Assembly (NCBI GenBank): GCA_021157625.1
Contig: JAGGWD010000003.1
Coordinates: 10,633 to 74,632 of the forward strand
Direction: 5' to 3'
Length of the DNA: 64,000 nucleotides
Source of the DNA: a bacterium
Lineage (GTDB): Bacteria > Patescibacteriota > Minisyncoccia > Minisyncoccales > JAGGXC01
A program made the position numbers and the translations under genes. Under the pieces are notes generated by a model that did no database searches, had not been told where the DNA came from, and saw only the letters and a program-made list of their open reading frames with translations. Positions 20,838 to 56,163 of this stretch are shown here, piece after piece. How positions within the stretch are numbered: position 1 is the first letter of the stretch; every line of letters starts with the position of its first letter.

Positions 20838-21456
20838 GCAAATGTATCCTCCACCTATCCAAAAACTAATAGAGCAATTTTCAAAGTTTCCTACGGTGGG
20901 ACCTAGAACAGCGGCACGTTTTGTTTTCTATTTACTCCAAGCCCCAAAAGAAGAAATAGAAGAACTTGTGAACTCTATTTCAAACCTTTCCAAGGAAATA
21001 AAACTTTGTTCATTTTGTTTTAAACCATATGCTGGTCCAGGAAATCTTTGTGAGATATGTTATGATCCAAGACGAGATAGAACTAAGTTATGTATTGTAG
21101 AAAAAGAAGTAGACCTGGAAGCTATCGAGAAAACAAAAAAATACAATGGTCTTTACTTCATTCTTGGAGGTACGGTCCCCCTTTTGAAAAAAGAACCAAA
21201 AAAAATAAGGATCTCGGAATTAATTGAGAGAATAAAAGATCCAGCAATCTTTCATTTATTTAATGCTTCCTTTGAAGAAATTATAATTGCCACCAATCCT
21301 ACTCCCGAAGGAGAAGCTACTGCTCTTTATCTTGAAAAGAAGCTCAAGCCTTTTAATAAAAAAATCACTAAATTGGGACGCGGCTTACCTATTGGAGGCG
21401 AATTAGAGTATGCAGATGAAGAAACTTTAAGTGAAGCGCTTCAAAGAAGAAAGTAG
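20824..21456 (+). CDS. recR: Recombination protein RecR
   Basis: FPTVGPRTAARF HhH motif, a C4 zinc finger (CSFC...CEIC) and a Toprim segment. Confidence 0.92.
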   Translation: MKNIKQMYPPPIQKLIEQFSKFPTVGPRTAARFVFYLLQAPKEEIEELVNSISNLSKEIKLCSFCFKPYAGPGNLCEICYDPRRDRTKLCIVEKEVDLEAIEKTKKYNGLYFILGGTVPLLKKEPKKIRISELIERIKDPAIFHLFNASFEEIIIATNPTPEGEATALYLEKKLKPFNKKITKLGRGLPIGGELEYADEETLSEALQRRK

Positions 21457-21533
21457 ATCTGAAAAAATAAATAGAAAAGGATAAACTAGTAAAAATTAAA
21501 CGAATTGAATATCATTCAAATAAAAAGTCAAAA

Positions 21534-21559
21534 AGCAACCTTAATTTGGTTGCTATTTT
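21534..21559. terminator. Bidirectional hairpin terminator (recR on +, structured RNA on -)
   Basis: AGCAACC-UUAAUUU-GGUUGCU is flanked by an A-run on one side and a U-run on the other. Confidence 0.55.
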
Positions 21560-21564
21560 AAAAA

Positions 21565-21703
21565 GGTGAGGAAAAGAGGATATGCAGAAAAATCTTCGCT
21601 TCAATGGCGCTCTATCTGAGCTCACCAATAAGCCATTGAAGCGAAACAGCAGAAGGAAGATTTTTTCTCTACTCCTCTTTTCCTACCTTCTGTCCTCACC
21701 ACC
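21565..21703 (-). ncRNA. Candidate structured small RNA, class unknown (rod-like, 6S-like shape)
   Basis: A near-consensus promoter lies directly upstream. A 136-nt imperfect hairpin with four helices (7, 9, 11 and 11 bp) is followed by UUUUU and a second terminator hairpin. No ORF of 60 aa or more. Confidence 0.6.
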
Positions 21704-21709
21704 AATATA

Positions 21710-21737
21710 ATTATAACAAATTAAAAAAACTTGTCAA
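21710..21737 (-). promoter_or_regulatory. Near-consensus sigma70 promoter with extended -10
   Basis: Minus strand: TTGACA (21737-21732), a 16-nt spacer ending in TGT, then TATAAT (21715-21710). It starts 5 nt after the rplU stop codon. Confidence 0.7.
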
Positions 21738-21741
21738 GCTT

Positions 21742-22053
21742 TTAGATCTCTATTTTTGTAATTTCTACTTCTGTAAATAAATGACGATATCCTTTCTTCT
21801 TTTTATATCTTGTCTTTGGTTTGTATTTTAGAATCGTTATTTTCTCTCCTTTTGATTGCCCTACAACCTTTCCTATTACCTTAGCACCTTTTACAAAAGG
21901 TCTTCCTATCTGAATTTTATTCCCTTTCTGGACTAACAAAACCTCTTTAAAGACAACTTCGCTTCCCTCTTTTTTGTTTATTTTTTCAATTTTTATTTTT
22001 TGCGAAGGAGAAACCAAATATTGTTTCCCTCCAGTTTTTATTACTGCCAGCAT
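21742..22053 (-). CDS. rplU: 50S ribosomal protein L21
   Basis: MLAVIKTGGKQY... full-length L21 pattern. Confidence 0.95.
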   Translation of the reverse strand: MLAVIKTGGKQYLVSPSQKIKIEKINKKEGSEVVFKEVLLVQKGNKIQIGRPFVKGAKVIGKVVGQSKGEKITILKYKPKTRYKKKKGYRHLFTEVEITKIEI

Positions 22054-55955: not shown

Positions 55956-55998
55956 AAATAAAAAATGAGGGGTTTTATTCTATTACTGCTATCCCCTC
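55956..55998 (-). terminator. Hairpin plus U-tract ending the small-ORF transcription unit
   Basis: Minus strand reads GAGGGG-N20-CCCCUC followed by AUUUUUUAUUU. The stop codon lies in the loop. Confidence 0.45.
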
Positions 55999-56130
55999 TT
56001 CTTTTAAAATATCCTCAAATTTCTTGGGCGAAGGTCCCAAAACCTGCTTTACCAACGGATGGTTTTTTGGAAGGTGCTTTTCTGATAACTTTCTTATCTC
56101 CTCATGCGTTTTCATTCCTTCCACCTCCAT
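55975..56130 (-). CDS. Unannotated small protein (51 aa from the first ATG; 46 aa from the SD-led ATG at 56115)
   Basis: Hand translation gives MEVEGMKTHEEIRKLSEKHLPKNHPLVKQVLGPSPKKFEDILKEEGIAVIE. GGAGG lies 8 nt before the second ATG. A perfect consensus promoter lies upstream and a terminator-like hairpin downstream. The ORF is below the track's 60-aa cut-off. Confidence 0.6.
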   Translation of the reverse strand: MEVEGMKTHEEIRKLSEKHLPKNHPLVKQVLGPSPKKFEDILKEEGIAVIE

Positions 56131-56134
56131 TTTT

Positions 56135-56163
56135 ATTATATCTCAAATCTTAAACAATGTCAA
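56135..56163 (-). promoter_or_regulatory. Perfect consensus sigma70 promoter
   Basis: Minus strand: TTGACA (56163-56158), a 17-nt spacer, then TATAAT (56140-56135). The predicted start is at about 56128-56130. Confidence 0.7.

Follow-up and report, generated by a model that had tools for sequence, protein, structure and literature searches.

A candidate stand-alone structured RNA, bounded by promoter and terminators, in the gap between convergent recR and rplU genes of a Patescibacteria genome

A 64,000-nucleotide (nt) stretch of a Patescibacteria contig (JAGGWD010000003.1; the whole stretch is referred to here as the window) contains a gap between its convergent recR and rplU genes, the minus strand of which is predicted to encode a transcription unit of its own. 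Because promoter, long rod-shaped hairpin and terminator follow one another in order, because the promoter is retained across lineages, and because helices P1 and P3 of the rod evolve by compensatory changes, these features show the rod to be a putative independently promoted structured RNA outside any curated family. We infer transcription, the exact ends of the RNA, its action in trans and the existence of a partner from the sequence. As would be expected of a generic stand-alone bacterial small RNA gene, a promoter, a terminator and a conserved structure are found here, and coding capacity is lacking, with no ORF of 60 aa or more and no conserved small ORF. An initial annotation of the window had proposed a strongly promoted, stand-alone structured RNA in this gap, and the conserved promoter and terminators, the covarying helices and the lack of a family match all speak for that proposal at the level of sequence.

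The rplU stop codon, TAA, lies at 21744-21742 on the minus strand, and TTGACA begins at the fifth nucleotide past it, with four bases between. The sigma-70-type promoter occupies 21710-21737 of the minus strand, with the -35 hexamer TTGACA at 21737-21732, a 16-nt spacer, an extended -10 TG at 21718-21717 and the -10 box TATAAT at 21715-21710, and it scores 12/12. Only two 12/12 promoters are found on both strands of the 64-kb window, the second at 56163-56135; the annotation had described just this promoter directly past the rplU stop, had ranked it and one other site as the best promoters of the window, and was correct on each count. The same 12/12 promoter, with its TG and 16-nt spacer, is kept in two relatives with the same RNA, L090 and L087, and in L170, which carries a different RNA (type C, below), and is identical in these three loci despite divergence of the surrounding sequence. 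As annotated, no open reading frame (ORF) of 60 aa or more is present in 21457-21741, where merely mechanical ORFs of 38 and 42 aa are listed. We find no promoter on the opposite strand of the gap, and no downstream gene on the minus strand that the RNA might regulate. A tblastn search of the window for L27 (rpmA) returns no match, which, with an E. coli sequence as the query, is weak evidence.

The predicted transcript opens with GGUGGUGAGG ≈7 nt downstream of the -10 box, a spacing that places its start at ~21703 of the minus strand, on which all further elements of the rod also lie. A single-stranded 5' tail, GGUGGUGAGGACAG (21690-21703), precedes the rod; in the minimum free energy (MFE) fold the first ~12-14 nt are unpaired and the rod closes with AAGGUAGG against CCU-C-ACCUU. 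The purine-rich closing helix P1 has AAGGUAGGAAAAGAGGA (21673-21689) as its 5' arm, which pairs with 21563-21580, and is followed by the 5' arm of P2, GUAGAGAA (21665-21672), almost invariant in sequence and corresponding to helix 2 of the covariation alignment. A pyrimidine-rich internal loop or bulge on the 5' side, AAAAUCUUCCUUCUGCUGUUUC (21643-21664), varies between lineages in both length and sequence (22-35 nt in relatives); its AUCUUC can pair with GAAGAU, so that a bulge of ~13 nt remains in the MFE and centroid folds. P3, the long apical stem, pairs GCUUCAAUGGC (21632-21642) with GCCAUUGAAGC (21598-21608) in a perfect 11-bp helix, extendable to 14 bp, that is seen both as an inverted repeat and in the covariation. 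The apex of the rod is a 23-nt loop, UUAUUGGUGAGCUCAGAUAGAGC (21609-21631), in which UUAUUGGUGA is followed by the mini-hairpin GCUC-AGAUA-GAGC; the loop is conserved and the pairs of the mini-hairpin are invariant. On the 3' side, fold and covariation define the junction GAAGAU, the P2 3' arm UUUUCUGC and a 3-nt bulge, AUA (21581-21597), after which the P1 3' arm, UCCUCUUUUCCUCACCUU, runs into U5 (21560-21580, with the U-run at 21564-21560), giving the rod itself the shape of an intrinsic terminator. A second, conventional terminator, AGCAACC-N7-GGUUGCU followed by UUUUUGACUUUUU, occupies 21525-21554, with its hairpin at 21554-21534 and a T-run beyond.

The 144-nt transcript has an MFE of -58.4 kcal/mol (z = -5.6) and a 146-nt piece gives z = -5.15; in each case none of 200 shuffled sequences folds as well. 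The imperfect hairpin of ~136 nt that had been annotated thus stands, with z about -5. A scan for inverted repeats recovers a perfect 14-bp repeat (I3), a 29-nt repeat at 79% (I1), a 15-nt repeat at 80% (I6) and the CAGAAGG/CCUUCUG pair (I11), the last a complementarity that the annotation had already pointed out. All four helices of the annotation are confirmed as inverted repeats; the closure it assigned, GGUGAGG/CCUCACC, is replaced in the MFE fold by AAGGUAGG/CCU-C-ACCUU. The GCUC-N5-GAGC mini-hairpin, the UUUUU after the closing stem and the second terminator are likewise present as annotated. Separately, we observe that UGA-GCUC-AG..A-GAGC-G, the conserved mini-hairpin segment at 21609-21624 of the minus strand, resembles the tRNA D-arm, the consensus of which is UA-GCUC-AG...A-GAGC-G; a T-arm or acceptor-like element is absent, no tRNA or Y RNA model matches, and the likeness is probably coincidental. 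Inspection of the sequence by eye led us to reject a Y RNA or tRNA-like RNA, as well as a CsrB-like sponge.

For comparison with relatives we used 80 metagenome loci anchored on RecR and 13 loci obtained by exact-protein look-ups. The L21 and RecR proteins assign the window to Patescibacteria; the nearest named RecR matches are Nealsonbacteria-like (~70% identity), and contigs with an identical L21 are found in at least seven metagenomes. The RNA of the window, denoted type A, occurs at the same recR/rplU site in the strain variants L081-85 and L089, and in L090 (RecR 93% identical), L169 (89%) and L087 (84%), and is limited to RecR identities of at least 84%, with four lineages covering the range of 84-100%. 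We built a covariance model, R1, from the sequences of L089, L090 and the window; besides L081-85, L089 and L090, it detects L169 (E = 3e-12) and L087 (E = 3e-8). When run over 176 loci (1.17 Mb; relatives were searched as loci with flanks up to 6 kb), the window and 17 viral loci, R1 returns syntenic type A copies only, plus a weak match to a type C RNA (E = 0.05), and the rod is single-copy in the window. Each type A lineage folds as a rod alone, with z of -4.8 to -7.5 in L090, L169 and L087; L087 and L169 are diverged in sequence (41 and 56 bits vs 153), yet still form rods, with z = -6.2 and -4.8, respectively.

In a model-guided alignment, A6, which has five rows from four lineages and is fitted to R1's own structure, standard pairing holds in 96.4% of cells, and both partners have changed in a compensatory manner at 21 of 40 pairs; none of 500 shuffles equals these values, and the paired share falls to 45-54% of cells when partners are slid by 1-3 columns. 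Doubly changed pairs are concentrated in P1 (12 of 17 across lineages) and P3 (helix 4; 7 of 9). P2, GCAGAGAA/UUUUCUGC (helix 2), is 100% paired, with six of its eight pairs constant and the other two changing only between wobble and Watson-Crick, and no pair of the GCUC/GAGC mini-hairpin (helix 5) varies. In the window, L090 and L169, the apical loop retains the sequence GGCUUAUUnnUGAGCUC...GAGCGCC, and L087 has GGGUUAUAAUGAGCUC...GAGAGCCCC instead. In L169 (1636-1790, minus strand), a tandem duplication in the 5' arm (GAGGAGCA twice) is matched by one in the 3' arm (AAAUCCUC twice), and the rod stays paired. The U-run after P1 is also found in L090, L169 and L087, and the hairpin of the second terminator, AUAGCAACC...GGUUGCU, is conserved in these three and in L091. 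At the strain level, the window differs from L082-84 and L089 by four substitutions, all structure-neutral: the 5' bulge has two of them, the 5' tail another and P2 the fourth (U.G to C-G in L089). Conservation and covariation of the helices in relatives, on which the annotation had staked its proposal, are thus found, with the promoter and terminators kept on the same strand.

These features can be joined in a model in which the consensus sigma-70 promoter would start the RNA at ~21703, the transcript would fold into a four-helix rod (P1-P4), and transcription would stop either directly past P1, at the U-run, to give ~144 nt, or at the back-up terminator, to give ~175 nt. P1 with its U-run would terminate transcription and protect the ends of the RNA, with the 3' end buried and the 5' end exposed only as a short tail. 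The covarying helices P1 and P3 would serve as scaffold only, while P2 (GCAGAGAA/UUUUCUGC) with its 3-nt bulge would present one recognition surface for a putative trans partner, protein or RNA, and a second would be formed by the apical loop, UUAUUnnUGA, together with its GCUC/GAGC mini-hairpin.

The history of the locus bears on how this RNA may have arisen. The convergent arrangement of recR and rplU is conserved throughout the relatives, and in 39 of 64 of them the gap is 60 nt or less, too short for a rod RNA. All relatives with RecR identity of at least 74% and a readable gap have a large gap with a promoter-driven cassette, and in the RecR 74-85% range these are cassettes of a small ORF plus an RNA in all except L087, which is ORF-less. 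In L090, the promoter is followed by AGAGGUGAGGACGAAAAUG (a Shine-Dalgarno sequence), a 27-codon ORF and, directly after the stop codon, the same rod. The window keeps GGUGAGGAC, shared with L090, but without the ~80 nt that carry the ORF; the 5' tail of the window, GGUGGUGAGGAC, is therefore the leftover, now orphaned, of the Shine-Dalgarno region of a small ORF, with no start codon downstream. The tail is wholly absent from L087 and L169, where P1 begins at the predicted +1. Of the window, L090, L169 and L087, all have the RNA and three the perfect promoter, while only L090 has the ORF. Type A in the window appears to be, from these comparisons, a derivative lacking the small ORF of a cassette composed of promoter, Shine-Dalgarno sequence, small ORF, structured RNA and terminator.

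Such a history allows two readings of the rod. We give an even chance to the RNA module being the selected part, acting as a stable noncoding RNA, since the RNA is retained in three lineages without the ORF, two of which also have the perfect promoter. The main rival, which we consider unlikely though worth serious weight, is that the rod is a mere 3' terminator or stabiliser of a small-ORF mRNA, and the window copy a recent, undecayed relic after deletion of the ORF. The 27-aa ORF of L090 (RecR 93%), positioned between the same Shine-Dalgarno sequence and the rod, fits a relic, as do the orphan Shine-Dalgarno sequence in the window, the small-ORF cassettes of all RecR 74-85% relatives but L087, and the U-run in which the rod terminates. 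A relic is harder to reconcile with retention of the rod in three ORF-less lineages, with a perfect 12/12 promoter and TG in two, and with L087 and L169, which remain rods at high sequence divergence. Nor would a terminator need a conserved apical-loop sequence, and a conventional terminator comes immediately after the rod, so the rod is not needed for termination.

Several observations weigh against the RNA as the selected part. In L169 the -10 box has decayed to TATCCT and is weaker, which also fits a relic. At the strain level the rate in the rod (4 of 144 nt) is not below that of its flanks (103 of 6312 nt), and the compensatory changes between lineages, drawn from the small, structure-fitted alignment A6, could predate loss of the ORF and would then record selection for a 3' element of an mRNA and not for a free RNA; it is this unreduced rate, together with covariation possibly older than the ORF loss, that keeps the relic alive as an explanation. 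Folding energy does not tell sense from antisense, both of which fold equally well; the strand is assigned from the promoter and U-runs only. Searches of the window for complements of the apical loop give chance-level matches only and no target, and those for complements of the bulge give five weak matches with 2-3 mismatches, none significant.

The orphaned Shine-Dalgarno segment also raises the prospect of a remnant of a type I toxin-antitoxin-like or fold-back small-ORF mRNA, in which the 3' end silences the ORF through GGUGAGG/CCUCACC. In the window, the Shine-Dalgarno remnant GGUGAGG is indeed complementary to CCUCACC (I6), and in the full L090 transcript the centroid fold joins the Shine-Dalgarno region to the 3' tail. 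The locus is also hypervariable, and related cassettes hide the Shine-Dalgarno sequence in 5'-untranslated-region (5'-UTR) hairpins (L175). We nevertheless hold a fold-back origin to be very unlikely: the window has no ORF and no start codon after the remnant, the tail itself is missing from L087 and L169, the small-ORF peptides of relatives are hydrophilic and not membrane-toxin-like, and the antisense promoters of relatives are weak, non-conserved 9/12 matches in L090 and L170, with none in L087. A type I toxin-antitoxin system was rejected on the basis of the missing ORF, the hydrophilic peptides and the lack of a conserved antisense promoter.

The same segments underlie the annotation's suggestion of a conformational switch working through competing pairings, which might be riboswitch- or thermometer-like. 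Alternative pairings do exist in the window, where either GGUGAGG or AAGGUAGG can pair with the 3' end and CAGAAGG can pair with CCUUCUG. The competing GGUGAGG and CAGAAGG segments sit, however, in the 5' tail, and since this tail is missing from L087 and L169 and is the Shine-Dalgarno region of a small ORF in L090, the alternative pairings are a lineage-specific leftover. With no downstream gene on the minus strand and no match to a riboswitch family, the switch was not upheld and is, in our estimation, extremely unlikely.

The rod is also an imperfect inverted repeat of 130 nt with bulges in one arm, and in relatives it directly follows small ORFs. It could alternatively be read at the DNA level, as a miniature inverted-repeat transposable element (MITE) or as a recombination site, for example one like an integron attC. 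The site is a hot spot with module shuffling, an insertion sequence is inserted in L172, and the equal folding of both strands would suit such an element. Opposed to this are its occurrence in single copy in the window and all loci, at this locus only, and the perfect promoter and U-runs that flank the rod on one strand. Conserved GTTRRRY/RYYYAAC boxes are not found: the base of P1 reads GGUAGG/CCUCACC in the window, GUUAGG/CCUAAC in L090 and GGUAAG/CUUACC in L087, with GGT for the expected GTT in two of four lineages. No recombinase gene adjoins the locus, and BLAST searches of phage and plasmid collections yield nothing relevant. A MITE or attC site, rejected on account of the single copy, the absence of conserved core sites and the lack of an adjoining recombinase, is scarcely credible here.

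Searches for known families and for further copies place the RNA in a narrow setting. At gathering score, cmscan of the whole window against Rfam finds five tRNAs and nothing else, and a scan of 16 related loci finds only tRNAs or noise. At E<=10, the 401-nt region 21400-21800 gives 20 low-scoring matches to unrelated families, among them a ylbH leader (20.5 bits vs a gathering score of 50) and small nucleolar RNA and microRNA models, and none to 6S, 6S-Flavo, signal recognition particle (SRP) RNA or Y RNA. The annotation had singled out Rfam, with 6S (RF00013), SRP and other families, as the comparison to make; with no family match, the RNA falls outside the curated families. The bacterial small SRP RNA (4.5S) was rejected on two grounds, the absence of an Rfam SRP match and an apex that is the 23-nt loop UUAUUGGUGAGCUCAGAUAGAGC and not a domain IV with a GNRA tetraloop. 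An nhmmer search with the rod RNA against 80 rplU loci from GTDB genomes gives no match, and a scan of viral contigs with a 15-base motif gives 17 matches, all rejected by the covariance model, and 0 with a stricter motif. Literature searches on Patescibacteria with 6S RNA and on the Candidate Phyla Radiation with structured RNA found nothing describing the rod RNA. From its distribution in these loci, type A is a small, lineage-restricted RNA family of one narrow Patescibacteria clade and not a housekeeping RNA.

Slightly more distant relatives carry other RNAs in the same place, behind comparable promoters and Shine-Dalgarno sites. L170 and L173 have small ORFs followed by type C RNA, which has the base module GAGGA-GCAG ... 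CUGC-NNN-UCCUC in common with type A and a different apex, and L195 has a small ORF followed by a rod on the same base plan (type E; z = -4.7). The P1 / 3-nt bulge / P2 base module (GAGGA-GCAG ... CUGY-NNN-UCCUC) thus recurs in type C (L170, L173) and type E (L195). In L088, L092, L093, L171, L175 and L194, small ORFs precede a multi-helix type B RNA of ~180 nt, unrelated to type A, and L174 has a small ORF followed by a further RNA. ORF families and RNA types are mixed, as judged by eye: the ...SPREFLLPWQ ORF is found with type B or D, and the ...DYDPS...GG.. ORF with type B or C. A Pfam scan of the small ORFs of relatives gives no match.

Type B RNAs are ~175-190 nt long and lie downstream of small ORFs (L088:3540-3730 and L175:2240-2430, both minus strand, as well as L092, L093, L171 and L194). 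Their conserved blocks are CCAG..AGGUGAAUA..GUUAGA, CAAGAGCUUU, CCGCAGACAnAnnUGCGG, AAACUCUUG and GAAUUCCCCUGGAAUUC; they have no Rfam match at gathering score and noise only at E<=1, and RNAalifold predicts 42 pairs, 4 with compensatory changes. In the 5'-UTR of the ...SPREFLLPWQ family (L175:2640-2700, minus strand; also L088, L093, L174 and L194), a hairpin pairs CCUUCUUGUUU with AAACAAGGAGG and would therefore sequester the Shine-Dalgarno sequence, an arrangement that looks like translational control. In the window, the other perfect promoter (TTGACA-17-TATAAT) is followed, within 55975-56163 of the minus strand, by a strong Shine-Dalgarno sequence, GGAGGUGGAAGGAAUG, and a 46-51-aa ORF, MKTHEEIRKLSEKHLPKNHPLVKQVLGPSPKKFEDILKEEGIAVIE, which ends in a GAGGGG...CCCCUC terminator upstream of pheS and is without a match in Pfam; small-ORF units with strong promoters seem to be characteristic of this genome.

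The gap also behaves as an insertion hot spot, with contents of 0 to 1.5 kb in L100, L106, L128, L130, L135, L136, L141, L144, L146, L159 and L172. Unrelated small genes are among these contents, and L172 has a PaaX-like gene together with an rve-family integrase. Transcripts of L128, L135 and L136 have a 5' purine-rich run (e.g., GGAAGGGAAGGGA) complementary to a pyrimidine-rich 3' end before the U-run, which suggests that they might form whole-transcript 5'-3' panhandles. In the more distant L107 (2495-2616), L152 (3122-3242) and L133 (780-894), the short gap consists of AT-rich direct and inverted repeats with a CGAAAAU/AUUUCGA-like unit and no cassette.

A broader reading of the locus, which we regard as improbable, is that the recR/rplU gap harbors an undescribed, modular and fast-evolving cassette, the window RNA being the RNA-only form of an RNA-centred conflict or symbiosis module. 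In such a cassette, a constitutive perfect promoter would be combined with a small ORF and a structured RNA (types A to E), both of them exchangeable; a hypervariable apical domain would be presented, in types A, C and E, on a conserved base of P1, bulge and P2. Conflict systems such as defence, addiction and anti-phage decoys typically turn over at a fixed hot spot in this way. If true, this would be a new RNA-centred conflict or symbiosis module in episymbiotic bacteria with reduced genomes. For type A itself, we regard the rod as a genuine candidate for a novel, narrowly distributed stand-alone small RNA derived from a small-ORF unit, with a narrow range that limits its significance. To our knowledge, the small regulatory RNAs of the Candidate Phyla Radiation (Patescibacteria) are almost unexplored because these organisms are uncultured, and the locus provides a candidate that is cleanly bounded from promoter to terminator and backed by covariation. 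Sister lineages in which a small ORF precedes this RNA or is missing also amount to a natural experiment, from which one could learn how small-ORF mRNAs become noncoding RNAs.

Among known systems, the extended rod most readily calls to mind 6S RNA, to which the annotation had likened it; a 6S-like RNA would mimic an open promoter and sequester the RNA polymerase holoenzyme. The likeness lies in the rod with paired 5' and 3' ends, the strong promoter of a stand-alone gene and the asymmetric internal loop between the long helices P2 and P3; the apical UUGGUGAGC may also resemble part of E. coli 6S RNA, which is weak evidence. Against it, 6S (RF00013) and 6S-Flavo (RF01685) are absent at gathering score and among the E<=10 matches in 21400-21800, and ~144 nt is short for a 6S RNA. 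Where 6S has a two-sided bubble, the bulge here is one-sided: both the MFE and the centroid fold of the window leave ~13 nt unpaired on the 5' side and none on the opposite side. The internal loop of relatives has 22-35 nt vs 6-12 nt and is partly paired. The GG of UUGGUGAGC is not conserved, relatives having UUAUUGAGC, UUAAUGAGC or UAAUGAGC. The distribution is patchy and unlike that of housekeeping 6S, because in most relatives, searched as loci with flanks up to 6 kb, the RNA is either missing or replaced: close relatives have structurally unrelated RNAs (types B and D) in the same place, and more distant ones have none. The 6S proposal did not survive these comparisons, and we judge it highly improbable.

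Like an intrinsic (Rho-independent) terminator, the rod is a helix followed by a U-run between convergent genes; unlike one, it has four helices over 136 nt, a conserved loop, a promoter of its own and a normal terminator 6 nt later. Fold-back type I toxin mRNAs, in which the 5' and 3' ends pair (e.g., hok and aapA1), resemble it in that the 3' end is able to pair with a 5' segment resembling a Shine-Dalgarno sequence, relatives carry a small ORF and the locus is hypervariable; they differ in that here there is no ORF, the peptides of relatives are not hydrophobic and no promoter for an antisense RNA was found. Dual-function small RNAs, or small RNAs that carry a small ORF, include RNAIII/hld, SgrS/SgrT and SR1/SR1P, and small RNAs derived from 3'-UTRs share the terminator of their mRNA. 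The rod has no sequence or structure homology to any of these, and presents a conserved apical loop in contrast to their seed-bearing single-stranded region. It is like them in forming a short, strong unit in which, in sister lineages, a small ORF is joined to a conserved structured RNA ending in a terminator, and in that the RNA domain persists here where the ORF is absent.

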